A stretch of DNA of 64,000 nucleotides from Promethearchaeota archaeon (GCA_014728035.1 WJMJ01000018.1:1-64000), one strand, 5' to 3'; shown: positions 16,313 through 41,684, counted from the first letter of the stretch. Numbers and translations: made by a program. The notes: generated by a model not told the origin, from the sequence alone.

Positions 16313-17590
16313 TTACTTAACTTCTGTAACGTGACATGAACAACTGATACAAGGATCATAAGCACGTATCAATCTGTTAAGCATCAACTCAAGCTCTGGT
16401 TTTGGTAGGTCAGCAATTGAAGGATACAAAGCTCGAACATCTTCTTCCATGTTCAGATAGTTCATTGTTGTAGGTGCAATGATATCAGCTTTCTTCAAAA
16501 GACCATCATCACCGAACTCGTAAGAGTGTACTAATGAGCCACGTGGTGCCTCGGTGATATGAGTGCCGAAGCCAGCCTTTGGCACAGTTTCAAACTCATG
16601 CCATTCTAAATCGCTCTTCAATAGTGCATCAATGGTGTCTATTGCCATATCAAAAACCTGAGCGGTCTCGATAAGCTGTGCAGCATTGTTGTGGAACGTA
16701 TTGAAGCTTGGTAGTTTTATTCCAAGCTGATTAAGAGCTTTCTTGGCAAACGGTGATAGCTGATCTGAATTGTTGTTCAATCGTGGAAGAGCTCCGACAA
16801 AGAAACCATGACCATCGTGAGTACCAGACTTTGCAAAACTGTAAGCAGGTTGTGCTTCAACGATAATGTCCTTGTATTTCTCAACAGGTAATCGATGTCC
16901 CTCAGATGTAACAAGGTCTCCTTCTACTAGAGCATATTCATCATCATGTTTGATTGAAACATAAGTGGTTTCTCGTTCGAATTCTGGCTCTTCAAGAGTA
17001 GCCCACACATCCAGACACTTCTGAAGGTCAGGACGAGCTGCATTGATGCGTTCCTTGAGTTCGTCAAGAGCTTGATGAGTTGGGTAACTGGTAAATCCAC
17101 CAACAGCAGTTGCTACTTGATGAACTTCACGACCACCTGTTAGAATTTGCAGATCATTACCGAGTTTCTTCAACTTCAATGCAATCTTAACAACATCTGG
17201 AAAGTCAGCAGCAGCTGATATGACACTTTCATGACCAACATAGTCAGGTAGTGCTAAATAGAGAGCATGGAGAATGTGAGATTCGATATACTCACCCCAG
17301 ATGAGGAGTCTTCGTAGATCAGTAACTTGCTTATCTACTTCAATACCCATTGCTTTTTCGACTGCTTTAGTTGATACAACTCGATGTGATGCGCTACAAA
17401 TAGCACAGATACGACAGGCCATTTCTGGAACCTCGGTGTATTCACGGCCTCGTAGGAATGCCTCGAACAGTCGAGCACCCTCATCAACAGCCATCTTTAC
17501 ATCGACGAGTTGTTTATCTTTGGTCTTCACGTAGAGAGACCCATGTCCTTCTACTCTTGCAATGTGCTTAATATCAATACTTTCAGTCAT
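16313..17590 (-). CDS. hydA: Group 3b [NiFe] hydrogenase (sulfhydrogenase) large subunit alpha
   Basis: RVEGHG, L1 RICAICSASH, EAPRG, L2 DPCISCSCH with a short C-terminal extension. Confidence 0.93.
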   Translation of the reverse strand: MTESIDIKHIARVEGHGSLYVKTKDKQLVDVKMAVDEGARLFEAFLRGREYTEVPEMACRICAICSASHRVVSTKAVEKAMGIEVDKQVTDLRRLLIWGEYIESHILHALYLALPDYVGHESVISAAADFPDVVKIALKLKKLGNDLQILTGGREVHQVATAVGGFTSYPTHQALDELKERINAARPDLQKCLDVWATLEEPEFERETTYVSIKHDDEYALVEGDLVTSEGHRLPVEKYKDIIVEAQPAYSFAKSGTHDGHGFFVGALPRLNNNSDQLSPFAKKALNQLGIKLPSFNTFHNNAAQLIETAQVFDMAIDTIDALLKSDLEWHEFETVPKAGFGTHITEAPRGSLVHSYEFGDDGLLKKADIIAPTTMNYLNMEEDVRALYPSIADLPKPELELMLNRLIRAYDPCISCSCHVTEVK

Positions 17591-18363
17591 TAGAATTCCA
17601 ACTCCTTGAACTCCTCCATATCAGCCACTGATGGGCAGTACTTGAGGAATCTTCGTTTGACATCTTCAGAGGTTGCTCCAATCTTCTTGAGAATCTCAAC
17701 CTCGGCAGCCCAGTTTGCTTCTGGGGCGGGACCTCGACATCCTTCACATGGAGCTCCATAAGTAGGACAGAGTGCATCGCATCCTGCCTGAACTACTGGT
17801 CCCATGCAGAATTTGCCTTCTTTCAGAAGACATACATTTTCTTTGGCTTTGCATTCACCACAGACGCTGTACTGTGGAATATATGGTGTTTTACCAATCA
17901 ATAGAGCTTTTACTGCTTCAACGAACTCAGCCTTATCCATTGGGCAACCGGGTAAAGCGTAATCCACCTTCACATAGTGTGAAACTGGTTTGATATCAAT
18001 TGCATCAATACGCTCGTAGTCATCACCATAGACTTCTTTCTTCCACTCATCTGTATCAGCAAAGTTGCGTAAAGCAGGTAGTCCACCATGTGTTGCACAG
18101 GCACCAATAGCGACAAGAACACCAGATTTCTCTCGAATATTCTTTATGCGTTCGATATCTGTGGATTTGGCAATAGAACCTTCAACAAAAGCTACGTCCC
18201 AAGGACCGTCATCATTTTCAGCCTTAGCCATAACCCATGTCTTGATGTCAACCAATCCAATGATATCGAGTAAGTGGTCTTCAAGGTTCAATATATTGAG
18301 CTGACAACCAGCGCAACCCGTGAATCCGAATATTCCCACTGTGGGTTTCCCATTATTCCCCAT
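17590..18363 (-). CDS. hydD: Group 3b hydrogenase small subunit delta
   Basis: GCAGCQ, IGACATHGG, PGCP and distal Cys clusters. Confidence 0.92.
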   Translation of the reverse strand: MGNNGKPTVGIFGFTGCAGCQLNILNLEDHLLDIIGLVDIKTWVMAKAENDDGPWDVAFVEGSIAKSTDIERIKNIREKSGVLVAIGACATHGGLPALRNFADTDEWKKEVYGDDYERIDAIDIKPVSHYVKVDYALPGCPMDKAEFVEAVKALLIGKTPYIPQYSVCGECKAKENVCLLKEGKFCMGPVVQAGCDALCPTYGAPCEGCRGPAPEANWAAEVEILKKIGATSEDVKRRFLKYCPSVADMEEFKELEF

Positions 18364-19211
18364 TAGATAGCCTCCTGCATTTGTTCTACTTGAAACAGTG
18401 TGAAGACAGGACCATCAATACATGTGAGCTTGTGACCAATTTGGCAATGAGCACACTTCCCAACACCACACTTCATCTTTCGTTCCAGAGAGAGAAGTAT
18501 CTGATCTTTTCCTACTCCAATGTCTAATAGCTCTTTTACAACGTACTTGTAGACAACAGGAGGACCACAGACAACAGCACTGAGATTATTGCTTTCGAAT
18601 TTCTTCTTTTGGAAAAGAGTTGTAACAACACCCTCGTTGCCATCCCAATCGTCATCTCCTTTGTCTACTGTCACATGAAAGTCGATATCATCTAATGCTT
18701 CCCATGCAGCCAATTCGTCTTTGAAGAGTAACAGGTCTGGAGAACGAGTCCCATAGAATATTGTGACTTCTCCAAAATCATCACGATTGTCTATTACATA
18801 GTTGATTAGTGAACGGAGTGGTACTAGACCAATCCCACCAGCTACAAAGAGAATATCGCGTCCCTTGAGGGACTTGACTGGAAATCCGTTTCCATAGGGG
18901 CCTCGAATTCCAACAATATCACCAACCTTAAGCTCGTGAATCTTATTTGTCACATCTCCAGTTTTTCTGATGCCTAACTCAAGATATCCTCGCTTAGTGG
19001 GACTAGAACTGATTGAGAATGGAGCCTCACCAATTCCAAACATGCTCAATTGTACAAATTGACCTGGCTTGTATGTAAAGAGATCCTTCATTCTTCCTTC
19101 AACAAATTCGAAGGTGAATAGAGTTTCCCACTCGGTCATCTTTCGTTTTTTAATCAATTTAGCAAGGTCTGGAACGTACACATTTTCTTTCTTAATTTGT
19201 AGTTGAACCAT
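18363..19211 (-). CDS. hydG: Group 3b hydrogenase FAD/NAD(P)-binding subunit gamma
   Basis: PGQF, RGPYGNGF, AGGIGLVPLRS, CGP and MKCGVGKCAHC [2Fe-2S] motif. Confidence 0.92.
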   Translation of the reverse strand: MVQLQIKKENVYVPDLAKLIKKRKMTEWETLFTFEFVEGRMKDLFTYKPGQFVQLSMFGIGEAPFSISSSPTKRGYLELGIRKTGDVTNKIHELKVGDIVGIRGPYGNGFPVKSLKGRDILFVAGGIGLVPLRSLINYVIDNRDDFGEVTIFYGTRSPDLLLFKDELAAWEALDDIDFHVTVDKGDDDWDGNEGVVTTLFQKKKFESNNLSAVVCGPPVVYKYVVKELLDIGVGKDQILLSLERKMKCGVGKCAHCQIGHKLTCIDGPVFTLFQVEQMQEAI

Positions 19212-19213
19212 CT

Positions 19214-20290
19214 CTATTTACCTCCTTGAGCAGTTGGAGCTACCTCCCAAATTCCTGAGAGTTCCTTCAATACATCTTTGATACTGATATCACTTGGACA
19301 GGCAGCTGTGCATCTTCCACAACCAGTGCATCCAAGAATACCTTGATCATGAGCGAAACCTCTCATCTTGTGATAGAAGCGATACTTGAATCGTGCTGCA
19401 GGGGTTTCACGGAAATTATGACCTCCAGCAACGAGAGCGAATTCTTGGAACAGACATGCGTCCCATTTTCTTGTTCTATCTGCAGAAGTCAAGGATAAGT
19501 CCAAGTCATCGACAACATCGTAACAGTAGCAAGTTGGACAAACCATAGCGCAAGCTCCACAATTCACACAATCCTTTGCCATCTTATCCCAGAACTCGTG
19601 ATTGAAGGATAGGTCAAGATATTCGTTAATACCTTCAACGTCTACTTCATGGGGCAAAGACTCGTTTTTATGTTTCAGTGCGGCTTTGAAAGCAGCAAAA
19701 TCTTCTGGACCTGCTTCTTTGAATATTGAGCGTGCCATGTGAATAAGGTGCTCTCCTTTTGCAGTACCGACCTGTACATAGTATCTATCATCTGAGATTG
19801 GTGTGAGGAATAGGTCATAACCCTCAACAACATGATGAGTATTCATTGATCTGCAGAAACCATATTCGCAGGGGTCTAGACAATTAATTCCAACAATAGT
19901 GGTCTTATCACGACGAGCAAAGTAGTATTTATCGGTATATTCTCCTCCAAATACTCTGTCCAGATGTAAGATTCCATTCAAGTCACAGGAGTGCACGCCC
20001 ATCAATAAGCGAGGGCGCATCGCCTGAAGCTCATCAAGGGTATCTTCGACTTTCTTTTCTTCTAGATCGAAACTCATCATGACCTCATTCTGCGGTTGGA
20101 AATATTTACGAGGTGATAGAATCGTACTATCGTAATCCATGACAAGCTTGTCTGGGTCGTCAATCTTCCCAAATACGTGCTTGCTCCTTTTCTTTACTGG
20201 GCCGAAAACATCATACTCATTTGCCGCAGCTTCAACGAGTTTTTTGATGTCGGTCCGCTTCATTATGTAGGGTGGACTCATGATTATCAT
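19214..20290 (-). CDS. hydB: Group 3b hydrogenase Fe-S subunit beta (AsrA-like)
   Basis: CVNCGACAMVCPTCYC and CTGCGRCTAACP. Confidence 0.92.
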   Translation of the reverse strand: MIIMSPPYIMKRTDIKKLVEAAANEYDVFGPVKKRSKHVFGKIDDPDKLVMDYDSTILSPRKYFQPQNEVMMSFDLEEKKVEDTLDELQAMRPRLLMGVHSCDLNGILHLDRVFGGEYTDKYYFARRDKTTIVGINCLDPCEYGFCRSMNTHHVVEGYDLFLTPISDDRYYVQVGTAKGEHLIHMARSIFKEAGPEDFAAFKAALKHKNESLPHEVDVEGINEYLDLSFNHEFWDKMAKDCVNCGACAMVCPTCYCYDVVDDLDLSLTSADRTRKWDACLFQEFALVAGGHNFRETPAARFKYRFYHKMRGFAHDQGILGCTGCGRCTAACPSDISIKDVLKELSGIWEVAPTAQGGK

Positions 20291-20513
20291 CGGTCCTTTT
20301 CTAATCTAAGGTATGTGTCGAGCATTGAATCAACACCAATAAGGTTTGAGGAATGGTATCGAGATATGGAATAGAGAATAATATCTGAAAAAGAAAACAA
20401 AGTGATAATTTATGTTCCAAAATGATAATTTTTAATGATTTCATGAATTACCGCAAGAAACTTTGCATAATTGGTGCTTAAAGGGGATTGTATGCAAGAT
20501 ACTACTGAGAAAA

Positions 20514-21005
20514 ATGTCTGATGTCACTACCAAAACACTTCCGAACAAAGAGCAGTTTACATTCATTAGAAAACTTAGAAGAGAATCAAAAGGAGTAAGA
20601 GTTAGATTCAAAGTCTTAGAACTATCAACACCAAGAGAGGTATTCTCCCGCAAATCTAATCGTATCTATCAGATAGCAAATGCAGTTCTAGCTGACGAGA
20701 CTGCAAAAATCACACTACAACTCTGGAATGATGATATTGATAAAATTAAGCCAGGTAGAACATATGTTTTGGAAAATGGATATGTTTCAGTTTATAATGA
20801 ATGTATGTTCCTTAATAGAGGATATGGTGGAGATATCACTCCAAGCACAGAAACTATTGAGACCCCATCAGAATTGAAAGACATGAGCTTACCATTTGTC
20901 GGAATAAAGGTTTCAAGAAGGGCTGCAGAATCATCTACACCAAAAACCTTTCGAGGAGATTCTGGACGCACCTCAAAGGGTTATTGTTCGTTCAAAGAGT
21001 TTTGA
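20514..21005 (+). CDS. Single OB-fold ssDNA-binding protein (archaeal SSB/RPA-like)
   Basis: LADETAKITLQLWND...IKPG...LENGYV OB-fold pattern with a flexible C-terminal tail; start moved to ATG 20514. Confidence 0.78.
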   Translation: MSDVTTKTLPNKEQFTFIRKLRRESKGVRVRFKVLELSTPREVFSRKSNRIYQIANAVLADETAKITLQLWNDDIDKIKPGRTYVLENGYVSVYNECMFLNRGYGGDITPSTETIETPSELKDMSLPFVGIKVSRRAAESSTPKTFRGDSGRTSKGYCSFKEF

Positions 21006-21006
21006 A

Positions 21007-24000
21007 TTAAGCTATCAGACTTATCACAATCGATCCTCCAAATATAACAATAGAGGCTACAAGGGCTAGTAAGACAACTAATCGAAGATATACTAACCGA
21101 GGATTCTCTTTTTCTCGTTCTCTAACAAAGAATGCAAAGAATAGCAAAGAAACAGCTAATGCCAATAGTAGACTCTGAATAAAGATTCCGAAGACAAAAG
21201 TGTACGCAAAACCGGTTAATCCAAAGAAAAAGAGAGAAAGAAACACAAACTTAGAATCTTTACCTATTACAGGGATGAGAACGACTGATGTGGCAATAAG
21301 CGAGAGATATCCTGCAGATACTGTTGAAAAAGCCGCAAATAGAGAAGCAATGTACACTGCAACTCCAAGACTGATAGCTTGTACAATCCATAGAGGGTTA
21401 CTAATTCTTCTAGGAAGATAATCAAGATAGGTAGAGATTGTATACAGACAACAAATAGCTAGCAAAGAAATTGACACTGCAAATACTTGAAGATCAATGG
21501 TTATTGCGCCAACCATTAATCGGTCTAGAAGAACGGTTCCCAAAGCAGCGGGAATTGGTGTCCAGAAGATTGATCGCCAGACAGTGCTCTTTTCAGCCTC
21601 TACAATAGCTATCAAACCAGCCATTGAGAAAGCCAATACACCCAATGCTCCGGCAAGGACAATATCACCTTGTTCAGTTAACCAGGATGCTCCGGTTATC
21701 CCAAGACCAAGTGACATGAGGAATAAACTTACGGATCCAAAAGTTGTCTTGACTTGCCGTCGAATTATCGCTATGACCAGCAACATCATTCCAAGAATAG
21801 TCATTGGCAAAGTTATGCTTGGTACAAGATACAATGCACCAGTTGGAGGCATTTGGATAAGGTCACTGAAAAATGGAAAACTCAGAATAGCTATTGTTGT
21901 TGTAAACACTGAAGAAGATAGACTCCACATGATATATCCAAAGCGATCGAAGAGATAACGTAGTGTTCCTGTGAAGTCTCGAAGAAGCTGTCCCATAATT
22001 GCTCCAAGATTCTTTACTATGTTGATGAATCGTTGAATCTGATTCGGAATAAGAGGTGACATCACAATCAGTCCTGCAAGAATCCCAGCTACAATTGAGT
22101 ACACACCATTTATTGTTGTAAAGAGATATGAACCACTTGTCACAAAGGGAATAAGACTGAAACTGACCAACCAATGTGCGCCCCGTTTCATCGAGTCTAA
22201 TTGATTCATTGAAAATATTGGGATACTAACTAGACTAGTCGCCAGAATCACTCCAGAAATGACATATGATAGAAACATACCATCTGTAAGATTCTCAGGT
22301 AGAAGTATGTATAATATGCCTTGATAGATTCCAAACGTGAAGCAAACACCACTAGGAACTCTCAGACGAATACCATTTTCACTTGACATCAATTTGTTTG
22401 CCAAGAGATAGAGAAGCCCAGTAATCAGAAATGAAGTGGATACAATTCCTACAATGGAACGTATCTCGAGACCTAAAACCAAACCAATTGGAATGGTACC
22501 ATAAGTGCTCAGAGCTACCGAAATTCCAACCAACGGTGATGTAAGACTTACCAAAAGAAGTGAATTACTTCGTAAAATATTGATTGAAAAATTCATGAAC
22601 CTAATTGTTGGGTCAATCAGAGTTGGAATTGAAAGAATATACCAAAATGCAAAAGTCCAGATGAAATAACTGATAGGGTCAAATTGAAAACCAGCAAATA
22701 GGAATATACCTGCCAATGATGAGGATAGACCAAGATTGAGAACTGATGGCATCCATGATGGTTGTACTGGGAGAAGCAGATAGTACAGACCAGTTCCGAT
22801 ACAGAGAACTGCAATACTACCAAACAATCCGGAGGTGGGATTCCACTGCAGAATCGAACTTCCAAAATATGCCAATAAAGAGGAACCAGCAAGCCCTGGT
22901 AAAATCATGAAATGAGATGCAGTACTCTTGGTATGAATTCTCAGCTTCTCTTCGTATTTCATGAATACTGGGGCTGAAAGAAGTGACATCATGACAAGAA
23001 TTACACCAGTTGTTAATGTGATATTGGTAGGTTCAACAAATAAGAGATAATTCCAATTTGTAAGATATGCAGACACAAGGATTGCAACTATCACTGCCTG
23101 GATCTCCCATATGTGACTGAAATATCTCCAATTGAGTACCTTAAGTGGCAAAGCAGAAATTGAAAGAAGAGAAATTCCAGCAGCTCCAGCAATTACGCCA
23201 TGTAATGGAAATGTCGTAATAGTTAACGTAATCCAAATTGATTCCAACCACACAATCGAAGAGATAACTAGACTCTGAACAGGCACACCAGTCTTCAGGT
23301 CTTTTCCATATGGTCTTACTTGAGTAAATAGAAATGTTGTAAGCCAAGTAGTAAGAAATATTGCGGGTGAGGAGGATGTTTCTGTCAGTATCCATAGAGA
23401 TGATACTAGAGAAGCAATAACACCTCCAAGTAATCCCCACGAAATTGAATGATAGTTATCCACAAGAGATGTATCAAATAAGACGAGTAGAATTGGAATA
23501 GCACTAACATATAGAGCAAGTCCAAATGGAAGACTCGATATATTCAGTAAGAATGTAAATATCGATAACGATGATGAGACTGTAATAGCATAGATTACTG
23601 CTACTAATAGTAACTCGTCCATTCTTTGCCAAGCTGAAACCCCTGAAATAAAGAGAAAAACGAGGACTGCCACCTGAATCGATAGTATGATGTTAATTGG
23701 ATATAGAAATAGAAGTGTTCCAATAGATAAGAGTGAAGATCTAATCCCTATGAAAGCTAAAGCGAGTTTAGATACATCAACATTTATTGAAGGAGTTACT
23801 CGAATTAATTCAGAGCTTATTATAGCGGCAAATATCACCGCAATGAGTCCATAAGCTTGTAGAACGTACCAAATTCCAATGCCAACTGTTGAGCTGAAAA
23901 CCCACCAAGTGTAGCTGGATCGTAATCTTTCTGGTATCGAAAGAATGAATGTTTCTAGACTGAAAAATCCTATTAATAATAGAATCGGGTCTAGTCCCAA

Positions 24001-27000
24001 AGGTATGAGATTCCAGAAAACAACTCCAAGAGTAAGACTAACAACTGAAGTGAAACCAACAGCCATACGTTGTTCTGCTGGAACAAAAATTGCACCCAGA
24101 AGTATGGTCTCGATAGCCAACAACAATACCTTCGATACAAAATCGATAGGAATAATGTATATTCCAAGCAGAGATACAGTAACTAACGTAGCAATGAATC
24201 CAGGCACAAACGTTTCTGTTAAATGAATCTCACTGGTACCAATAAACGAAAACAGGGAAAAGAAAGACACCCATGCAAGTATTTCAAAAATTGGGTCGGA
24301 TACATTTAGAACTGATACCAAATTGAAACTAATAGAAGCAGCAAATATGAAGTAGACAGCACTTAGGAGTGAAGAATAATCTGTTTTTCTAATATGTAAA
24401 ATTGGCAGCCAGATAAACGTGAAAATGGATAGATACAATGAACTGATTAGTATAATGTTCAATCCCATTTCAAACAGAGCTAGATAAGTAATGGATGCGA
24501 GATAGGCAGTTAATGAAAATGAAACCAGACCTAAAACTGGAACTGCATGAAGATCCATGAATCGATATACCTTCTTTAGCCCATTCAGGATAGTTGATCC
24601 TGCAGTAATAAGACCCTGCAAATAGATTTGATATGTATAAGGAATAGGAGCTAAGACTAGGACACATAGTGTGCTCAAGATATTGAATGTGAAGAGATAA
24701 GTGAGTAGTGTAGCAGAGATTACAGTTAGTGAGAAATACATTCCGCTAAGTATCTTTCTTGATATTCCAAAGAAATGATAACCACTGGTGAGAATTCCCA
24801 AAACTGAAAGGGACACAAGAACTGAATAGTTCAGTCCAAGAGTAGGAAGGAAAAAGAAGAATAATTCATTGCATACTAAAGCAAGAAGCAATGTGAATCC
24901 AGTTCCTGGAAGTGTATTCTCAACTCTGTCAGAAAATCTTCCACGACCTAATATCAGGAGGGAGATTGAACCAAGTACTGCAACTATTAGACGAGTTATC
25001 GGATTTGGAGGAATGAAAGAATTATAGATCAATCCACCCAAAGAAATTGAGAGCCCAACAATTGACACCTTAGTAAGTATAAGAGAAGATCTATCGATTT
25101 TCAATAACATTCCAAGATATAACACGAAAAAGCAGCAACTCAATAGTAACGCTGTAGAAACCAAGGATAAACCAAAATAGGGAACAACAACCCCATAACC
25201 AAATGACAAACAGAGCAAAGCTGAAAATACTGCCCAAGAAACAAATATGAATTTCAATAGAACCTGAGCTGCAACGACCGCAGCATCATAAGCAGCTCGA
25301 CCAGCTTTTGTAACTCCATTCTTAACATTTGTAGCAACTAGTTTCAGTCCATTTGAGATTACTAGACCAATTCGGATAGCTCCAAATTTTATTTTACCAC
25401 CGACATATCGGGCTCCAGAAGAAACCCACATTCCAAAGTTTGTAAGTTTCTCATGGACTACACGACCAATCCGTGAATATATTGGGTGCCCAACAGGTAC
25501 GGGTAGAATGAAAGCTGCAATCAGGATAAGAATTGGGCTGTAAGCTGGTAAGTAGGTAATTTGAATATTCCATGCAAACCAGATACCAGCAATCATTCCA
25601 GGAAGGTATGGAATTGCGGTTCGCTTTAGGGTAACTCCATTTTTTTGAATTGAACTTGATAATAACATCCAAAGCAATGCAATTGGTAGTGCTTCTCCAA
25701 GCGACATAACTTGGATACCAATCAGATACCAAAGAGTTAGCGATGAAACACTTGCAAGAAATGCAATCACACCAAGATTAAGAAGCTTGGATTGGTTTCT
25801 TAGACGCGAAATTGCAGATACACCAAGTGTTCCAATTCCTGAGAATATCCCGCCAGAAACAGAAAGCAACCCAAGAATAGAGTAATCATAAGCTGCAAGT
25901 AATGGATAGATAAGATAAACCACAATCGCAGTGAATAAAATGTTAAAGATCATCCCTGAAATCAAAATGTGACTTTTTACCCACAACTTCAGTCTCTTGA
26001 AGGCATGAGTAAACCCATCCCATATTCTTCGGAAGATGCGACGAACTCTTTTGAAGAGACCTGTAACTCCTGCGATGAATGATATTGATGAAATCAGAAG
26101 AGAGATAGATAATGGGAAGAGATAGAACTGTGTCCATAGATAGAGAGATGCTGATGTTATACTAACTACTGCAGTACCTAGAATACGAACAACAATGCCT
26201 TCTCTACTTCTTCGGAGAAAACCTCCCAGTCTCAAATATACTGGAACGGGCATTAGAATCAATAGAGAGAGTAGAATACCCAAGGGCATAAAGAGTGCAA
26301 AGAATTCAGAAACTAGTCCCCAACTTGTTGCTGAAGTGAGGGTAAGAAATACCATAGGAATTCCAATAGCAACTAATACCAATCCAAAGGCTGCAATACT
26401 TTGAGATAAATTCAGATCTATGACCCATTCAGCATTCTCCATTTTGACATGAAGAGGGTCTAGTTCAACATCGGAATCAGCGTTTAGTGGTTCATGGTTT
26501 CCTTCATCAATCACAGTCTTATTGATACTGATTGAAGGTGTAATTGTAATTCTAGAGATAATTCGTAGCTGAATTCGACGAAGTGCTCTACTAGCAAATA
26601 ACAGACCAAGACCAGTTACTACAGAGAAAAGAGAAACATGGAACGAAATATCACTGGAGATAGAGCTAGCTAAAATAGAAGATAAAAGGCCTATATCTGC
26701 AGAAAAGGTGAATGTCACTACTGATCCGATTCTTTTATCGCGTAGTATAATCTGTGTAAGAATAAGATAACCACAGAGAGAAAGGATACTCCAAAACAGA
26801 CTCTCTAATAGTGGAATCCTAGAAACCATAATGATGTATACAAATACTGGTCCACTGAAGACTATCAATGAACCAAACAATTTCTGTAGATTTCCCCAAA
26901 CCTCCTCAGAGATAACAGCATTTCTCCGTAGGTCTATTGAAACTGCTAACGTGATAATTAGGAAGATATGGATGCCCAACAAGACGGAAGCAGTTGACAA

Positions 27001-27285
27001 AAAGCTAAGAAAGAACGTATAACACAAGATGCTAGTGCTTGTAAGAATTGCAGTTGCTCCAAGATACCTATAATCTATCCGGTTGAGTAACAATCCCGCT
27101 AACATAACTCCAACTGCAAATGAAATCAATGTACGGTGATACATATCAGAAATAACAGGTCCTGTAATGTAATATGTTGCAAGCAAAACTGCACTAGGTA
27201 CGATGATTATTAGTACTATGAACCTCAATACCGCTAGTAGGAGATCAGCCAACCTAGCGGCGCGCTCTGTCCGGTGGTCTTCCAT
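21007..27285 (-). CDS. Giant polytopic membrane protein (~2090 aa) of unknown function
   Basis: Uninterrupted ORF that is hydrophobic along almost its whole length; likely start ATG 27285. Confidence 0.8.
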   Translation of the reverse strand: MEDHRTERAARLADLLLAVLRFIVLIIIVPSAVLLATYYITGPVISDMYHRTLISFAVGVMLAGLLLNRIDYRYLGATAILTSTSILCYTFFLSFLSTASVLLGIHIFLIITLAVSIDLRRNAVISEEVWGNLQKLFGSLIVFSGPVFVYIIMVSRIPLLESLFWSILSLCGYLILTQIILRDKRIGSVVTFTFSADIGLLSSILASSISSDISFHVSLFSVVTGLGLLFASRALRRIQLRIISRITITPSISINKTVIDEGNHEPLNADSDVELDPLHVKMENAEWVIDLNLSQSIAAFGLVLVAIGIPMVFLTLTSATSWGLVSEFFALFMPLGILLSLLILMPVPVYLRLGGFLRRSREGIVVRILGTAVVSITSASLYLWTQFYLFPLSISLLISSISFIAGVTGLFKRVRRIFRRIWDGFTHAFKRLKLWVKSHILISGMIFNILFTAIVVYLIYPLLAAYDYSILGLLSVSGGIFSGIGTLGVSAISRLRNQSKLLNLGVIAFLASVSSLTLWYLIGIQVMSLGEALPIALLWMLLSSSIQKNGVTLKRTAIPYLPGMIAGIWFAWNIQITYLPAYSPILILIAAFILPVPVGHPIYSRIGRVVHEKLTNFGMWVSSGARYVGGKIKFGAIRIGLVISNGLKLVATNVKNGVTKAGRAAYDAAVVAAQVLLKFIFVSWAVFSALLCLSFGYGVVVPYFGLSLVSTALLLSCCFFVLYLGMLLKIDRSSLILTKVSIVGLSISLGGLIYNSFIPPNPITRLIVAVLGSISLLILGRGRFSDRVENTLPGTGFTLLLALVCNELFFFFLPTLGLNYSVLVSLSVLGILTSGYHFFGISRKILSGMYFSLTVISATLLTYLFTFNILSTLCVLVLAPIPYTYQIYLQGLITAGSTILNGLKKVYRFMDLHAVPVLGLVSFSLTAYLASITYLALFEMGLNIILISSLYLSIFTFIWLPILHIRKTDYSSLLSAVYFIFAASISFNLVSVLNVSDPIFEILAWVSFFSLFSFIGTSEIHLTETFVPGFIATLVTVSLLGIYIIPIDFVSKVLLLAIETILLGAIFVPAEQRMAVGFTSVVSLTLGVVFWNLIPLGLDPILLLIGFFSLETFILSIPERLRSSYTWWVFSSTVGIGIWYVLQAYGLIAVIFAAIISSELIRVTPSINVDVSKLALAFIGIRSSLLSIGTLLFLYPINIILSIQVAVLVFLFISGVSAWQRMDELLLVAVIYAITVSSSLSIFTFLLNISSLPFGLALYVSAIPILLVLFDTSLVDNYHSISWGLLGGVIASLVSSLWILTETSSSPAIFLTTWLTTFLFTQVRPYGKDLKTGVPVQSLVISSIVWLESIWITLTITTFPLHGVIAGAAGISLLSISALPLKVLNWRYFSHIWEIQAVIVAILVSAYLTNWNYLLFVEPTNITLTTGVILVMMSLLSAPVFMKYEEKLRIHTKSTASHFMILPGLAGSSLLAYFGSSILQWNPTSGLFGSIAVLCIGTGLYYLLLPVQPSWMPSVLNLGLSSSLAGIFLFAGFQFDPISYFIWTFAFWYILSIPTLIDPTIRFMNFSINILRSNSLLLVSLTSPLVGISVALSTYGTIPIGLVLGLEIRSIVGIVSTSFLITGLLYLLANKLMSSENGIRLRVPSGVCFTFGIYQGILYILLPENLTDGMFLSYVISGVILATSLVSIPIFSMNQLDSMKRGAHWLVSFSLIPFVTSGSYLFTTINGVYSIVAGILAGLIVMSPLIPNQIQRFINIVKNLGAIMGQLLRDFTGTLRYLFDRFGYIMWSLSSSVFTTTIAILSFPFFSDLIQMPPTGALYLVPSITLPMTILGMMLLVIAIIRRQVKTTFGSVSLFLMSLGLGITGASWLTEQGDIVLAGALGVLAFSMAGLIAIVEAEKSTVWRSIFWTPIPAALGTVLLDRLMVGAITIDLQVFAVSISLLAICCLYTISTYLDYLPRRISNPLWIVQAISLGVAVYIASLFAAFSTVSAGYLSLIATSVVLIPVIGKDSKFVFLSLFFFGLTGFAYTFVFGIFIQSLLLALAVSLLFFAFFVREREKENPRLVYLRLVVLLALVASIVIFGGSIVISLIA

Positions 27286-27541
27286 CCTATATCCTCGCCT
27301 CTCCCATTGATCCGATGCGAAATCAATACATGCGTGCTCCTCAAGCCTCAAATCAATGAGCAAGCTAAATTTTTGCGCAGATGCTTATAATGTATTATTG
27401 ATTGCTTGGTAAGTTTTACTAGATGAAATGCGCAATTGGTAATTCCGCAAACGATTAATTGGGAATTTCATATAAATATCAACAGGACAGATTTATTTCT
27501 TTTGAAACATAAAGTGAAGTGTACGCTTAGAGGGAAAAACC

Positions 27542-28042
27542 GTGCCTGAGAAAGTACAATGCCGCTACTGTGGCAAGGAAAACACTGCCGACGAAACAAC
27601 CTGTATTCACTGTGGAGCAGGTCTCTCGGATGCATTCAAGAAAGTGTTTTGTGACCGCTGTGGAGTACCATTACCCGAGGATTTGAGTCCTTTTGGGAAA
27701 TGTGTTGAGTGCCAGAAACCTGTCTATCTGTGTGATAAACACAAGAGAAAGGTGGTTGGTGAAGAGGTGTACTGTAAAGAGCATGAATCAGAGTGTTTCA
27801 TTGCGACAGCTGTGATTGGGACTCCATTAGATCCTAGAATAGATCTCTTACGCTCTTTTCGGGACGAATGGCTCCAAAGTAATTCGCTTGGTCGTGCAGC
27901 TATCTTCACCTATTACGAGCTATCGCCTCCTATTGCTCACGCTATTCGATACAATTCAACTCTACGCAGAGTATTTCGCAAAGTCATTGTAGAACCAGCA
28001 CTATCATTTGCAAAATTGATTTTGAATAGAGAACAGGCTTAA
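27542..28042 (+). CDS. Zinc-ribbon protein with C-terminal CFI-box-CTERM-like domain
   Basis: Several CxxC and CxxH motifs, then CFIATAVIG...LRSFRD...GRAAIFTYYELSPPIA. Confidence 0.8.
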   Translation: MPEKVQCRYCGKENTADETTCIHCGAGLSDAFKKVFCDRCGVPLPEDLSPFGKCVECQKPVYLCDKHKRKVVGEEVYCKEHESECFIATAVIGTPLDPRIDLLRSFRDEWLQSNSLGRAAIFTYYELSPPIAHAIRYNSTLRRVFRKVIVEPALSFAKLILNREQA

Positions 28043-28077: not shown

Positions 28078-28941
28078 ATGAGAGAGAGAAAGGAATCGAT
28101 ACCCTTCCCTTTGGTTGTTCTTACAGGGAGAATGCGTTTGAGCGGACTATCTTGGGTATTAGCTGAAAATATTACTCAACAAATCAGGCAACAAAGACCT
28201 AGTAACCTCATTCAAGCTTGTACTGAACACATCTCTTCTTTCTCTTCTGAAGCAGCAGAAAAATTCGTAGTGCTAACTCAATTCAGTAAGAGTAGCGAGA
28301 AACAAACTCCATCAATTATTTTGGCTATTGAAGGAAGCTCAGCAACAGGGAAATCGATTTTAGCTATGGGGCTGCTAAGAGCTCTTTCAGCGTCAAGAAT
28401 TGTTAGTACTGATACAATTAGGCAGGTATTGCGAGTAAAAGGATCAAGTGAAAAACATCCAGAACTCTATTGTCATACATATCAAGCACACAAACACAAA
28501 CAAACAGGAAGTAAAGATTTAGATCCCATAGTCCGAGGTTTCTTAGCTCAATGCGAACTCATCACACCTACGATTTCCAGACTTGTTGAGAGATTAGTGA
28601 ATGAGGGTACTACAGGACTTATAGAAGGGGTTCATATTGTTCCAGGAAATCTACAAAAACTAGGAGAGGGGATTATTGAAGTTCTTATCCATCCATCGCA
28701 AAAAATCCACGAAGGAATGTTCATCTCAAAAGGAAAGGATACGAAGCTAAAGACAGTTTCTAAGGAAGAGTCTATCAGAGTTGCAGAATATGAAGCAACT
28801 AGAAAGATTCAGGATTTCATGTTTCAGAGAGCTGAAATGAATAATTGCCACATAGTGGAGATGAAAGATTTTGATAAGGCAGAATCGATGATATGTGATA
28901 TTGTCTACTCAAAAGTTAAAGAAATTATGAAGAAAAAATAG
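28078..28941 (+). CDS. 2-phosphoglycerate kinase-like P-loop kinase
   Basis: GSSATGKS Walker A, STDTIRQVLR and IEGVHIVP. Confidence 0.75.
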   Translation: MRERKESIPFPLVVLTGRMRLSGLSWVLAENITQQIRQQRPSNLIQACTEHISSFSSEAAEKFVVLTQFSKSSEKQTPSIILAIEGSSATGKSILAMGLLRALSASRIVSTDTIRQVLRVKGSSEKHPELYCHTYQAHKHKQTGSKDLDPIVRGFLAQCELITPTISRLVERLVNEGTTGLIEGVHIVPGNLQKLGEGIIEVLIHPSQKIHEGMFISKGKDTKLKTVSKEESIRVAEYEATRKIQDFMFQRAEMNNCHIVEMKDFDKAESMICDIVYSKVKEIMKKK

Positions 28942-28984: not shown

Positions 28985-30394
28985 ATGAGGCCCAGTATCT
29001 TGAGTTGGAAAAACGAGTCGCTAGATAAACTGTTCAATGCTGAATCAATTGCAGTGATAGGAGCTTCAGATAAATCTGAGAAACTAGGGGCGCTAACGCT
29101 GAAATGCCTTGAAGAATTCAAGGGGAGAGTATTTCCTGTCAATCCAAGACTAGACAAAATTGGAGAATTGAAATGTTATCCTAGCATTACCGAGGTTAAT
29201 GATCAAGTGGACATGGCGATTATCTGTTTGGGTGCTCACCACATTATCAGAACCCTTGAGCAGTGTATTGATGCAGGTGTTCGAAGTGCAATCATCTTTT
29301 CAGCTGGATTCAAAGAACTTGGACCGGAAGGAGAAAAATTACAGGAGAAGGTTAAAGAAACAGCAGATAGAGGAAAGATTGCTGTCATTGGACCCAATTG
29401 TCTTGGAGCTGGAAATGTCCGAGCTGATTTAAACGCTACATTCTTTCCCCATCCAGTTCCCCCTCGAAAAGGAAAGGTTTCATTTGTAAGCCAGAGTGGT
29501 GGTGTAGTAAGTCTTCTACTATACCGTTCTGCAGACTCAAATCTTGGATTATCGAAATTTGCAAGTGTTGGAAATCGAGTCAATATAGATTTTCATGATC
29601 TTATTAGATATTATCGGGATGACCCTGAAACTGATGTGATTGGTCTATTCATTGAAGGAACTGGTCACGCACGAGAGATGGCGGAGGAGATTGCCAAAAC
29701 GACACCGGACAAGCCAGTTGTTGTGTTCAAAGTTGGAAAGACACCAACCTCCAAACAAGCTGCTCTAAGTCACACTGGAAGTCTTGCTGGTAATGCTGAT
29801 TTGTATTCTGCTGCAATCAAACAAGCAGGTGGCCTCGAGGTTGAGAGTATTCAGGAGATGATTGATGCTGCTAGTGTTTTGTCAATATGTAAAGCGAGAC
29901 CTAAAGGAAAACGAGTTGCGGTCATCACACACAGTCTAGGAATAGCTCTCATAGCAGCTCAAACACTAGAATTGCATGGTGCTGAACTACCAATGCCCGA
30001 TAATGAAACTGTTGAGGTTGTTCAAGGTTTGTTAGATATGCCGGTGGAAATTCCAGTTAAGAATCCAATCGACCTTCTCGCAAAAGGCTGGGCTGAACCA
30101 CGTGTGTTTGCTGAAGCATTCAAACATGTAGTGCAATCGGATACGTATGATGCAGTTCTAACGGTATTCTCACCTAATTATCAGGAAGGAATTGGAGGAG
30201 GAATGCCTGTGGATGAAGTTGTATCAGCTGCAAAGAAAGCAGACAAGCCTGTGGTTAGTGTTCTAAACTCTCCAGCGGATAGAAAACCTCCAGGCAGAGA
30301 AGAATTGGAGGATGGGGGTATACCATTCTTCGCTAGTCCACAGAGAGCTGGGCGTGCATTAGCGACGGTACTCAGACTAGCCAGTAAGAAATAG
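28985..30394 (+). CDS. acdA: ADP-forming acyl-CoA synthetase alpha subunit
   Basis: IAVIGAS, PVNP, GPNCLG, SQSGG, phospho-His SHTGSLAG and NPIDL. Confidence 0.9.
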   Translation: MRPSILSWKNESLDKLFNAESIAVIGASDKSEKLGALTLKCLEEFKGRVFPVNPRLDKIGELKCYPSITEVNDQVDMAIICLGAHHIIRTLEQCIDAGVRSAIIFSAGFKELGPEGEKLQEKVKETADRGKIAVIGPNCLGAGNVRADLNATFFPHPVPPRKGKVSFVSQSGGVVSLLLYRSADSNLGLSKFASVGNRVNIDFHDLIRYYRDDPETDVIGLFIEGTGHAREMAEEIAKTTPDKPVVVFKVGKTPTSKQAALSHTGSLAGNADLYSAAIKQAGGLEVESIQEMIDAASVLSICKARPKGKRVAVITHSLGIALIAAQTLELHGAELPMPDNETVEVVQGLLDMPVEIPVKNPIDLLAKGWAEPRVFAEAFKHVVQSDTYDAVLTVFSPNYQEGIGGGMPVDEVVSAAKKADKPVVSVLNSPADRKPPGREELEDGGIPFFASPQRAGRALATVLRLASKK

Positions 30395-31724: not shown

Positions 31725-33311
31725 ATGAAGAGGTTATTTTCAATGGGAGACTTTACAGAATTAATGGGTGCTGCTAGCGCAGGACATCTCGGTAATGTTG
31801 AAAGGTTGCTGAAAATGGGTCAAGATCCTAATGCCAGAAGATTGTCGGGAAGAACTGCCTTGATGTATGCAGCATTCAGTGGGTCGGTTCCTGTCGTTAA
31901 GAAACTAGTGGAAGTCGGCGCAGAGATTGATGCTCGTGATAATAAAGGTTGGACCGCATTAATGGTCGCCATTGACCAAGGATACTTTGAAGTTGCGAAA
32001 GCTCTGGTAGAATTAGGAGCTGATACAAACGTTTCAACTGATAGAAATCAGACTCCTCTTATGTTAGCTGCAGGACTAGGTAAGATGGATATAGCAGTTT
32101 ATCTCCTAGAAAACGGAGCTGATCCCGCCATTGCTCGAGTTGATGGTTTTTCGGTGCTAATGGCAGCATGCCAAGGAAATCAGCTGAAACTAGCCAAAAT
32201 CTTGGTTGAGCAATATAATTGTGATGTTAATACAATAGCTGATGATGGGTGGAGTGCTCTTTCCTATGCGATACAATATGCAGATGATAAATGTGTGCTG
32301 TACCTGCTTGAGAACGGTGCAGAACCAAGATGGGAAAATGAATCGCAAAACGAATTGATCGAAAAAATTATTGAAAACGGAAATATTGAGATTATTGGAA
32401 AAATCCTAGACACAGGAGCTAATATTGAAACAAGACTTCGTCGAGGATGGACCCCATTTATGGTAGCTGTTGAAAAAAGCTCCATTGAAACTGTTGAATA
32501 TCTAATATCGAAAGGTGCAAATATAGACGCAACAACAAAAGAGGGATTCACTCCTATAATAATCGCCGCTGAGATGGGTCGAAAAGAAGTTGTTGATATC
32601 TTGCTAGATAATGAAGCGAACTTCATGGCTAGCAGCACTGGCGGCTACACCAGTCTAATGGCAGCATCAGCTGGTGGATTGGTAGACTTTGTCAAGTTCT
32701 TAATTGACAATAATGAAGAACCTACTTACTCGACAAGAAGCGGATGGACTCCTATTGCATTTGCGACGCAAAATGGACAAGTGGATGTCATCGAGATTCT
32801 TATAGAAAAAGGAGCTGAAATCGACCCTCAAGATGACAAAGGATACACACCATTGTTGATAGCAATTCTTAAGGATGATGTCAAATGCGCTCGTAAACTA
32901 ATTGAACTCGGTGCAAATTTGGAGATACCTGACAAAGAAGGATGGACACCTTTGATTAGTGCTGCATCAAGGGGATTAAAGGAAATCACAGATGTTCTTG
33001 TAGAAAAAGGAGCTGATACGAAATACCGAAGGCCAAATGGTTATGGCTTGTTAATGGCAGCGTCTGTGGGAGGTCTCACGGACCTTGTAAAACTTGCACT
33101 TGAAGAGGGCAGTGATATCAATGAGATTGATGGTGATAGTGTGACTGCGCTTATCTATGCAGCTGAAAACGGTAACCTCGACACTGTGAAATTTCTTATT
33201 GAACATGGTGCAGATCCGAAAATCACTGATAATCAAGGAAATAATGCCTTGGAATGTGCTCGGGCTGTAGGACAACCTGAAGTTATTGAGTTTCTTGAAG
33301 ATTATTATTGA
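31725..33311 (+). CDS. Ankyrin repeat protein (~15-16 repeats)
   Basis: Repeated G-x-T-[AP]-L-x-x-A...G...LL..GA units at ~33-aa period. Confidence 0.95.
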   Translation: MKRLFSMGDFTELMGAASAGHLGNVERLLKMGQDPNARRLSGRTALMYAAFSGSVPVVKKLVEVGAEIDARDNKGWTALMVAIDQGYFEVAKALVELGADTNVSTDRNQTPLMLAAGLGKMDIAVYLLENGADPAIARVDGFSVLMAACQGNQLKLAKILVEQYNCDVNTIADDGWSALSYAIQYADDKCVLYLLENGAEPRWENESQNELIEKIIENGNIEIIGKILDTGANIETRLRRGWTPFMVAVEKSSIETVEYLISKGANIDATTKEGFTPIIIAAEMGRKEVVDILLDNEANFMASSTGGYTSLMAASAGGLVDFVKFLIDNNEEPTYSTRSGWTPIAFATQNGQVDVIEILIEKGAEIDPQDDKGYTPLLIAILKDDVKCARKLIELGANLEIPDKEGWTPLISAASRGLKEITDVLVEKGADTKYRRPNGYGLLMAASVGGLTDLVKLALEEGSDINEIDGDSVTALIYAAENGNLDTVKFLIEHGADPKITDNQGNNALECARAVGQPEVIEFLEDYY

Positions 33312-38586: not shown

Positions 38587-38597
38587 ATCATATCACC

Positions 38598-40109: not shown

Positions 40110-40540
40110 TAGCGAAACCTCCGTCCTCGCCATTCTAAAGGTTCACGGTCAAGGGTGGTAATCTTATCTGGTCCATAGAGTAAATCTTCACGTTCTCCTT
40201 CGCTGATATCAACAACTTTCGTGTGATAGAGTGCTTCAAATCTACAAGCTTGAACACAGAGCCCACAGAATATACACCGGGTATAATCAAAGTACAATGC
40301 AGCATCTTTCTCATACTTTTGATCAGCTGTGTCAATTGATATAGCTACAACCGGACATGCACGAACACACTGTTTGCATGCTGTACAATTCTCTCTGACA
40401 TGAATGTGTCTACCACGAGTCCGTTCAGGATAGTCTCTATCTTCGAAGGGATAGAAGTAGGTGAAGGGTCTCTTGAAGATCTGTCTGAATACATTTTTAA
40501 GTATTTGAAATATATCACCTAGCGTTGAGAAGAATCCCAT
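40109..40540 (-). CDS. nuoI: Complex I-like 2[4Fe-4S] subunit I
   Basis: T..YP.E...RTRG, CTACKQCVRACP and CIFCGLCVQAC; ATG 40540 with GGAGG RBS. Confidence 0.9.
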   Translation of the reverse strand: MGFFSTLGDIFQILKNVFRQIFKRPFTYFYPFEDRDYPERTRGRHIHVRENCTACKQCVRACPVVAISIDTADQKYEKDAALYFDYTRCIFCGLCVQACRFEALYHTKVVDISEGEREDLLYGPDKITTLDREPLEWRGRRFR

Positions 40541-40545
40541 TATTT

Positions 40546-41676: not shown

Positions 41677-41684
41677 AATCACTC

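Follow-up and report, generated by a model that had tools for sequence, protein, structure and literature searches.

A 2092-residue Asgard archaeal protein with about 67 predicted membrane passes and a divergent zinc-ribbon/CFI-box neighbour

Described systems and the giant gene

Piezo proteins are mechanically gated homotrimeric propellers, comprising nine repeat units of four transmembrane (TM) helices, an extracellular cap and a C-terminal pore module. The antiporter-like subunits of complex I and of Mrp (NuoL/M/N; NuoJ/K, MrpF/G) are likewise polytopic, with internally duplicated TM modules and, in NuoL, a long lateral amphipathic helix; DUF2339 comprises bacterial many-TM proteins. Amphipathic helices with an 11-residue (3-11) repeat are known from alpha-synuclein, perilipins, apolipoproteins and LEA proteins, and 11-mer arrays of this kind bind curved or loosely packed membranes. 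With 114 passes per trimer and 38 per chain, Piezo is named in part of PMC9256749 as the membrane protein with the most TM passes known, and a portion of PMC11573180, which deals with proteins of more than 5000 residues, makes no mention of the family reported here.

In this work we focus on a giant gene from a Promethearchaeota archaeon, located in a window of 64,000 nucleotides, the whole stretch of DNA that was analysed (GCA_014728035.1 WJMJ01000018.1:1-64000). Its coding sequence lies at 21007..27285 on the minus strand, as do all parts of the protein described below, and encodes 2092 residues followed by a stop codon at 21007-21009. A TTG start would give an open reading frame of 2118 residues (21007..27363, minus strand), whereas the N-terminus obtained from the ATG at 27285 matches in the alignment the position where the homologues begin. 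The gene is present in a single copy in its own genome, and 14 genome-derived homologues with 24-55% identity are collinear with the giant protein from end to end. The 2092-residue open reading frame is a genuine single-copy gene. A chance hydrophobic frame, a misassembly or a multi-gene fusion has practically no probability left: 2092 codons stay open, full-length collinear homologues of 2033-2447 residues are found in many genomes and metagenomes, and the positive-inside charge pattern recurs in all 14 homologues examined. The homologues and the consistency of this pattern already refute an artefact, in favour of which no evidence was found.

The family is narrow. The survey of its taxonomic distribution placed it in one family of the Asgard class Thorarchaeia only, in 26 of the 87 genomes of the class and 26 of the 400 of the phylum. 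Moreover, two of the 16 loci carry an interrupted gene, split into 1256 and 839 residues in one genome (G008) and bearing a TAG stop in another (G074). The gene, which 61 of the 87 class genomes lack and which is interrupted at these two loci, is dispensable. We know of no cultured or tractable host.

Membrane topology and repeated cassettes

The initial annotation had described a nearly all-membrane protein of about 2090 residues with more than 50 TM-like segments counted by eye, and the present analysis agrees on both points. A crude Kyte-Doolittle scan (19-residue window, threshold 1.6) gave 51 hydrophobic segments, and a hydropathy filter applied to the AlphaFold2 helices retained 61 TM-like helices among 82 helical elements. 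The final list contains 67, after two long helices were split and short hydrophobic ones were added by hand; since this list comes from manual curation of the AlphaFold2 model and of hydropathy, and not from a dedicated topology predictor, the count may be off by a few. Lysine and arginine are distributed very unevenly on it, with 98 in the alternate loops designated inside versus 2 in those designated outside, and mapping through the alignment gave 86-112 inside versus 2-7 outside in 14 of 14 full-length homologues examined. According to the model, the giant protein appears to span the membrane about 67 times, starting from an N-terminus on the inside. The outside loops would measure only 2-18 residues, and all long loops and all basic amphipathic helices are predicted to be cytoplasmic. 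Two AlphaFold2 models, both all-helical, have mean pLDDT values of 75.5 and 84.1, and their pTM values of 0.45 and 0.50 leave the inter-domain geometry uncertain. We are highly confident of the overall anatomy, that is, about 67 passes from an inside N-terminus, arranged as an N-terminal domain, three cassettes, an 11-mer linker, a central region and a C-terminal module.

The N-terminal domain (residues 1-408, 26062..27285) contains 12 TM helices. It begins with a conserved cytoplasmic helix, in which D14 is found in 24 of 24 aligned rows, and includes a 57-residue cytoplasmic loop (residues 234-290) modelled with low confidence. Three tandem cassettes of about 190-235 residues each then span residues 415-1124: R1 (residues 415-603, 25477..26043) with six TM helices, R2 (residues 656-888, 24622..25320) with eight, and R3 (residues 890-1124, 23914..24618), where an amphipathic helix (residues 885-913) precedes another eight.

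Self-BLAST of the giant protein returned no internal repeat, and the best internal-repeat probability obtained with a 4-sequence profile was 25.9%; the cassettes were detected only with a 14-sequence profile. In the profile-profile comparison 11 of the 171 chunk pairs exceeded the best of 171 reversed-column controls (maximum of 61 versus 33.1), ten of them within residues 339-1041, and R2 and R3 matched each other with 94.8% probability across 223 columns. Furthermore, HMMs built from R2 only or from R3 only recognised the additional cassette in four orthologues (L017, L020, L021 and L023) with 61-88 bits, the reversed-sequence control being at 6.3 bits or less. The extra cassette or cassettes of the longer orthologues sit immediately before R3; among 24 full-length proteins, ten of which were not in the HMM building set, 16 contain three cassettes, seven contain four and one contains about five. 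The internal repeats suspected in the initial annotation are indeed present, the cassettes scoring 61 where reversed profiles reach 33 at most. Outside residues 415-1124 a combined cassette HMM found nothing, its scores there being no better than those of reversed sequences. A fourth cassette at residues 1743-1960 is weakly suggested by the profile comparison (42% probability versus R3, 16% versus R2 and 12% versus R1). No shorter relative of residues 405-1125 emerged at E<=0.001 from a word-indexed search.

The basic amphipathic helices that had been proposed to punctuate the TM blocks are also found. The six top 18-residue windows by hydrophobic moment (410-427, 1766-1783, 894-911, 1744-1761, 650-667 and 605-622) all fall within the four segments originally named, each of them cytoplasmic in the predicted topology, and three of these four helices open or link R1-R3. 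The helix at residues 409-439 (25969..26061), which opens R1, has the highest moment of the protein (0.88) and is basic in 14 of 14 homologues, with 7-11 Lys/Arg and 0-2 Asp/Glu. Between R1 and R2, the cytoplasmic linker of residues 604-671 (25273..25476) consists of basic, amphipathic 11-residue repeats in an array. The self-similarity of this array reaches +0.87 in BLOSUM62 units, with 26% identity, at a lag of 11 and +0.72 at a lag of 22, all other lags being at -0.34 or lower, and the moments at 605-622 and 650-667 are 0.54-0.55 versus a protein mean of 0.19. Period and amphipathicity place the linker among the 11-mer repeats, as a structural class and not by homology. Among the orthologues the linker's length ranges from 9 to 68 residues and its repeat copies from none to about six. 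Model confidence is low here (pLDDT 35-49), and Tandem Repeats Finder detected nothing in the DNA of the array. Like the 3-11 repeat proteins, the linker combines a period of 11 with a basic amphipathic character and a variable copy number; unlike them, it is tethered at both ends between TM cassettes, and it bears no sequence relation to them.

The central region (residues 1125-1742, 22060..23913), with about 22 TM helices, contains no repeat detectable in sequence. Next come two cytoplasmic amphipathic helices (residues 1743-1782, 21940..22059) at the head of the C-terminal module with its 11 TM helices (residues 1783-2092, 21010..21939). This module is the best conserved part of the giant protein, and one genome (G077) carries it as a free-standing gene of 308 residues.

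Piezo1/2 and the giant protein are both very large and almost all-membrane, and in both the TM units recur, accompanied each time by a cytoplasmic amphipathic helix. A Piezo-like mechanosensitive device, in which modular TM blades together with amphipathic helices in the inner leaflet would curve the membrane and control a pore, draws on the very high TM count, on modular cassettes that each follow an amphipathic helix on the cytoplasmic side, and on the 11-mer array. However, the cassettes hold 6, 8 and 8 TM helices instead of 4, each chain has about 67 passes versus 38, outside loops of 2-18 residues leave no space for a cap-sized domain, no pore module is recognisable in the sequence, and the protein is archaeal and restricted to one lineage. 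The Piezo domains of Pfam have no match in the giant protein (E<=10) or in 17 homologues, and no Piezo chain occurs among the 50 matches listed by either of the two Foldseek or two VIA-align (wide) searches, for which whole models of more than 1000 residues served as queries. The likeness to Piezo repeat units mentioned in the initial annotation thus stands as an architectural analogy and is not supported as family membership, and we judge a Piezo-like device very improbable.

Family searches, conserved residues and possible functions

The giant protein matches no known family and has no convincing fold match. Pfam gave no family at E<=10, NCBIfam none at E<=1, and a sequence profile search of the PDB none at E<=1. 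Neither library has a true match in any of the 17 homologues scanned, the Pfam search at E<=0.1 producing just two chance rows to other families. An assignment to DUF2339, the family named in the initial annotation, finds no support, since the giant protein, which shares a long run of TM helices with these proteins, has no Pfam match (E<=10) and no DUF2339 row appeared for the 17 homologues (E<=0.1). In the structural searches, Foldseek against the PDB gave no match at E<=0.001 for either half of the protein, the top matches being soluble alpha-solenoids with TM-scores of 0.14 or less, and the best score of the C-terminal 353 residues in the ESM Atlas (0.80) was within the range of shuffled proteins. 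A defence-system reading was rejected, as PADLOC matched neither the giant gene nor the partner and OB-fold genes described below.

The absence of a catalytic or nucleotide-binding motif, noted from the first inspection, is in line with these scans (none in Pfam, NCBIfam or PADLOC). It is improbable that the protein is a membrane-embedded enzyme, such as a glycosyl or lipid transferase or a polymerase, that has diverged beyond recognition: no loop contains a conserved cluster of acidic or histidine residues, loops as short as those outside leave no room for an external active site, no family was matched in the giant protein or its 17 homologues, and the prenyl synthase matches obtained are at noise level, prenyl synthases being soluble helical bundles.

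Positions conserved at 90% or more number 108, and 70 of them are G, P, W, F or L. The only conserved charged or histidine residues well inside TM helices are H106, E1111, R1182 and E1348, of which R1182 and E1348 lie buried in the central region. These four residues are what a giant transporter or channel, built by fusion of even-TM cassettes and conducting ions, lipids or another hydrophobic substrate, would place along its path, and many duplicated transporters have even-numbered TM cassettes of this type. Complex-I-like antiporter genes also lie nearby, 6-13 kb from the giant gene in the window and one or two genes from the giant/partner pair at two other loci (L014 and L023). Against a transporter, G, P, W and F dominate the conserved positions, and neither the giant protein nor its 17 homologues match any such Pfam or NCBIfam family, whereas the same Pfam library recognised the four antiporter-like neighbours, which match PF00361 (Proton_antipo_M) at E values from 1e-57 to 4e-72. 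PF00361 has no match in the giant protein, which, unlike the antiporter-like subunits, has no chain of conserved Lys/Glu/His residues; its matches to antiporter and complex I subunits are bundles of 3-5 helices that do not rise to the noise level of helical models. Only four of the 16 loci have a complex I neighbourhood, and only five a hydrogenase one. Transport is the main rival reading, one that we hold to be unlikely yet give a real chance.

We instead favour, with a probability of roughly one in three, a non-enzymatic scaffold in the plane of the membrane that works with the zinc-ribbon/CFI-box protein encoded next to it. Scaffolding is among the roles suggested in the initial annotation, next to membrane shaping and mechanosensing. 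In such a scaffold, the extensive array of helices would provide a rigid hydrophobic platform, which would be coupled to lipid packing or curvature by basic amphipathic helices and an 11-mer array positioned in the inner leaflet. The cytoplasmic zinc-ribbon and CFI-box protein, inherited together with the giant protein, would serve as its adaptor or regulator. A scaffold is preferred over an enzyme or a transporter because G, P, W, F and L account for most of the conserved positions, few polar residues are buried and no family is matched. The burial of H106, E1111, R1182 and E1348 counts against it, as it would fit a transport path too; the dispensability of the gene and the occurrence of the partner on its own in one genome count against a scaffold that works with a partner.

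The divergent partner and its neighbourhood

The partner gene (27542..28042, plus strand) encodes 166 residues and lies divergently at the 5' end of the giant gene; the 256-bp intergenic region (27286..27541) presumably holds the promoters of both. The protein has N-terminal zinc ribbons with invariant Cys/His residues and a CFI-box-CTERM tail. The latter belongs to NF041770, with 81.1 bits (cut-off 40) and an E value of 3.6e-23 over residues 85-150, and a scan of the whole genome with this model (83.1 bits at the same place) indicated that it is the only CFI-box gene of the genome. A full-text literature search for 'CFI-box' returned nothing.

The two genes are divergently adjacent in 16 of 16 loci that carry the long gene, a count that overstates independent support, as related genomes share gene order. 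Across the 87 genomes of the class, both genes are present in 20, the giant gene alone in six and the partner alone in three. Of the six genomes with the giant gene alone, four are fragmented assemblies in which contig ends cut the gene, and two contain no more than the short C-terminal form or a broken piece of this form. In one genome without the giant gene (G073) the partner is reduced to N-terminally truncated copies, one with a stop. In another, which is closed (G010), an intact partner adjoins an OB-fold gene, with neither a giant gene nor a remnant of it, which indicates that the partner can persist alone. A complex prediction for residues 1-780 of the giant protein with the partner scored 0.00 (mark 0.32), a result that weighs neither way on binding.

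On the other side, the giant gene converges with a gene (20463..21005, plus strand) whose Ssb-like product has a single OB fold and, at its C-terminus, a conserved basic tail; this gene is present in eight of the 16 loci. In five of the 16, the locus directly adjoins a cluster of four hydrogenase genes, and complex-I or antiporter-like genes are near in four. This proximity would agree with a role in the nearby complex-I-like/Mrp module or in the soluble [NiFe]-hydrogenase, either as an accessory subunit or as a platform for assembly. However, only close relatives share this linkage, which does not extend across the family, the hydrogenase subunits found have soluble-type domains, and 61 of the 87 class genomes lack the giant gene, a count that concerns this gene alone. 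We regard such a role as having very little likelihood.

If the topology holds, the number of passes per chain is far above that of Piezo, called the record holder in the part of PMC9256749 considered here, and an extrapolation to orthologues that carry one or two additional 8-TM cassettes gives about 75-83. The protein would then also offer a test case for the insertion and folding of very large helical membrane proteins in an archaeon. Growth of a membrane protein by cassette duplication is still ongoing in this family, with three, four or about five cassettes and none to about six 11-mers, and the fixed pairing gives the widespread CFI-box domain a concrete candidate membrane partner. It is a rather doubtful proposal, taken as a whole, that this is both the most polytopic single polypeptide yet described and an Asgard-specific in-plane scaffold or curvature/tension device, with TM cassettes in variable copy number, a tunable 11-mer array and a dedicated zinc-ribbon/CFI-box adaptor. 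As its host is an Asgard archaeon, the membrane biology concerned is relevant to ideas on the origin of the eukaryotic cell.

Membrane topology of the giant protein

The minus strand of the window holds a single open frame at 21007-27363 (2118 aa counted from TTG). The ATG at 27285 gives a protein of 2092 aa whose N-terminus aligns with the first residues of its homologues, and the giant gene is taken as 21007-27285, as in the initial annotation. Leu (16.8%), Ile (11.6%), Ser (10.9%), Val (8.6%) and Phe (6.8%) are abundant, and charged residues make up only 9.3% of the protein. An artefact reading of the gene is excluded.

The giant protein is a modular, cytoplasm-facing integral protein of about 67 passes. 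It was folded with family alignments as two overlapping halves, residues 1-1160 (27 rows; mean pLDDT 75.5, pTM 0.45) and 1041-2092 (36 rows; mean pLDDT 84.1, pTM 0.50), the low pTM values being insufficient to state domain packing. Both models are practically all helix, with long low-confidence stretches limited to the first 20 residues, a loop at about 248-276, and 614-683. Among the 82 helical elements, 61 have at least 15 residues with a hydrophobic core; splitting two helices of 53-54 residues and adding short hydrophobic ones gave 67 membrane helices, a hand-curated number that could err by a few. Along this list, Lys and Arg total 98 in even-numbered loops versus 2 in odd-numbered loops. 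When the loops are transferred along the alignment, the counts become 86-112 versus 2-7 in all 14 full-length homologues (a single loop with an extra cassette was excluded in the four long ones), and the bias holds even at about 25-30% identity. This textbook positive-inside pattern, kept up across 2,000 residues, assigns to the cytoplasm the N-terminus, every long loop and each of the four amphipathic segments; the outside loops have 2-18 residues.

The initial annotation had described a nearly all-membrane protein with dozens of transmembrane (TM)-like segments and without a recognisable catalytic or nucleotide-binding motif. The first point agrees with the 67-helix list and with a crude hydropathy scan, which returned 51 segments of 19 residues scoring at least 1.6. 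As to the second, the protein matched no family in Pfam at E≤0.01 or even E≤10, none in NCBIfam at E≤1, and nothing in PADLOC. Pfam gave no match in 17 homologues either, a family profile found no sequence match in the PDB, and no known fold was recognised with the models, each searched at more than 1000 residues.

At 108 positions conservation reaches at least 90% (Gly 20, Pro 14, Trp 13, Phe 12, Leu 11), and the only conserved charged or His residues well within membrane helices are H106, E1111, R1182 and E1348. This pattern suggests helix packing over catalysis, and a diverged enzyme is very improbable. The pattern does leave room for a narrow transport path; a transporter or channel is the main rival to the structural role proposed below, and we consider it unlikely.

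Repeat cassettes and an array of 11-mers

Self-BLAST detected no internal repeat in the giant protein, and a 4-sequence profile no convincing one. With a 14-sequence profile, 171 non-overlapping pairs of 200-residue chunks were compared alongside 171 controls with reversed target columns. Eleven pairs exceeded the top control score of 33.1, ten of them inside residues 339-1041, and the best pair (504-621 versus 795-899) scored 61.3 with 95.9% probability. The tandem cassettes are R1 (residues 415-603, 6 TM), R2 (656-888, 8 TM) and R3 (890-1124, 8 TM), each with both ends on the cytoplasmic face, a condition that tandem duplication imposes.

The clearest evidence for the cassettes is their variation in copy number. 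An insertion of ~236 columns in orthologues of 2250-2295 aa is an extra cassette, scoring 61-80 bits with R2-only and 72-88 bits with R3-only HMMs, which reach at most 6.3 on reversed sequences. Across 24 full-length proteins, 10 of them absent from model building, a combined HMM found three cassettes in 16 and four in seven; in a 2447-aa protein it gave six matches, two of them half-length, hence about five cassettes. Elsewhere in the giant protein this HMM detected no cassette beyond R1-R3; the segment from 1743 onward, headed by the fourth amphipathic helix, shows a weak likeness to R3 (42% probability). The repeated modules suggested earlier are thus borne out by profile and copy number alike.

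The recurring amphipathic helices of the initial annotation were also recovered, the six top hydrophobic-moment windows (18 residues) all lying inside its four quoted segments. The strongest is 410-427 at 0.88, followed at 0.54-0.61 by 1766-1783, 894-911, 1744-1761, 650-667 and 605-622; the protein mean is 0.19. Moreover, the cytoplasmic linker 604-671 between R1 and R2 is made up of arrayed basic amphipathic 11-mers, with a self-similarity of +0.87 BLOSUM62 at lag 11 (26% identity), +0.72 at lag 22, and -0.34 or lower at every other lag. Its length across orthologues is 68, 57, 35, 24, 17, 10 or 9 residues, the longer values being separated by multiples of 11. Both cassettes and 11-mers therefore vary in copy number within the family. 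Amphipathic helices of period 11 are the means by which alpha-synuclein, perilipins and apolipoproteins lie on membrane surfaces.

In design, the nearest analogue is Piezo, which likewise combines repeated TM units with amphipathic helices on the inner face, and which a review (PMC9256749) calls the protein with most TM passes, 114 per trimer. Yet every feature of Piezo membership testable here is lacking in the giant protein, and a Piezo-like sensor is highly unlikely.

Distribution and gene neighbourhood

A search by word index through 5.8 billion proteins returned, besides the giant protein itself, three relatives, of 55% identity (2095 aa, NCBI name 'membrane protein of unknown function [Candidatus Thorarchaeota archaeon]'), 31% (2295 aa) and 30% (2046 aa). 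Exhaustive HMMER with residues 893-2092 against 1.84 billion cluster representatives gave 32 proteins at E≤0.001, query included, all collinear with this region; they comprise full-length forms of 2033-2447 aa and shorter entries covering parts, mostly the C-terminus. Its own assembly holds one copy of the giant gene, which occurs in 26 of 87 class genomes (9 of 17 genera) and 26 of 400 sampled phylum genomes, all of one family, absence from incomplete genomes not proving loss. It is interrupted in 2 of 16 loci, being split into 1256 and 839 aa in genome G008 and carrying a TAG stop in G074. A free-standing homologue of the C-terminal 11-TM module only (308 aa; locus L028, 8046-8972, plus strand, contig G077:C116) lies among unrelated housekeeping genes without the partner, and genome G078 holds a broken fragment of this module with two TGA and one TAG.

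The partner, a co-inherited cytoplasmic zinc-ribbon/CFI-box neighbour of 166 aa (27542-28042, plus strand), is divergent at the giant gene's 5' end in all 16 loci with the long gene. Its N-terminus has zinc ribbons with invariant Cys/His, and it carries a CFI-box-CTERM domain (NF041770, 81.1 bits versus a cut-off of 40). It is the only CFI-box gene of the host genome, and 23 of the 25 class genomes with any CFI-box match hold an orthologue. The partner family is as narrow as the giant family: at E≤1e-5 it has 37 proteins, each sharing 52% identity or more across the aligned portion, and those with names are Thorarchaeota. Both genes are present in 20 of 87 class genomes. Six have the giant gene without the partner, namely four fragmented assemblies with the gene cut at contig ends and two in which only the short C-terminal form or a fragment of a pseudogene is present. 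In three, the partner occurs without the giant gene; it is intact in G010, a fragment at a contig end in G063, and present in G073 as copies truncated at the N-terminus, one of which carries a stop. Because kin share gene order, the adjacency and co-occurrence counts overstate independence; even so, no feature of the gene context other than this pairing is constant across loci.

In the closed genome G010 (L029 9192-10315, G010:C1), the OB gene, an Ssb-like single-OB-fold neighbour, and the partner lie 80 bp apart on one strand, with no remnant of the giant gene between them. Two other genomes of that genus possess the giant gene, and the locus is a clean presence/absence polymorphism. From its distribution, this closed-genome absence and the interrupted copies, the giant gene is therefore real and conserved at full length, but lineage-restricted and dispensable.

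The OB gene (20463-21005, plus strand) adjoins the giant gene's 3' end in seven loci and is two genes off in an eighth; it has a conserved basic C-terminal tail that closes with a Gly-Tyr-Cys...Lys-x-Phe motif. Two respiratory modules lie nearby, both on the minus strand. A soluble-type [NiFe]-hydrogenase cluster of four genes (16313-20290; large subunit, Oxidored_q6 small subunit, FAD/NAD-binding subunit and 4Fe-4S dicluster subunit), whose layout resembles that of a group-3 'sulfhydrogenase', keeps its synteny with the giant gene in 5 of 16 loci. At 33353-41700, a complex-I-like module includes a tandem of four antiporter-like genes (PF00361; 507, 505, 730 and 511 aa) and, after them, a NuoH-like gene (PF00146); such antiporter genes are near the giant gene in 4 of 16 loci. 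A role of the giant protein as an accessory subunit of the respiratory modules has little likelihood. Clusters paralogous to the antiporter module lie 1-2 genes from the pair in loci L014 and L023.

On the plus strand, the window further holds a 2-phosphoglycerate-kinase-like P-loop protein (28078-28941; NCBIfam PRK04220, 120 bits, under the cut-off of 343), beside it an ADP-forming acyl-CoA synthetase-type protein (28985-30394; Succ_CoA_lig and CoA_binding domains) and, further on, a 528-aa protein of ankyrin repeats nearly throughout (31725-33311; Pfam Ank, 10 stretches, E 1.9e-92), with an orthologue at the equal relative position in locus L013. In one sub-lineage, a helicase of 911-926 aa (ResIII/DEAD, Helicase_C), absent from the window, lies immediately past the partner gene (L018 13012-15789, plus; L019 2416-5196, minus) or on the opposite, giant-gene flank (L025 2650-5385, minus).

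A proposed role

As to what the giant protein does, we hypothesize, at a probability of roughly one in three, that it serves as a structural in-plane platform, whose amphipathic elements would be lodged in the inner leaflet, where they would couple the array of helices to lipid packing or curvature, and for which the partner may be an adaptor or regulator. The family itself is real and unusual, with no known relatives and uncommonly many TM helices, and merits structural follow-up.
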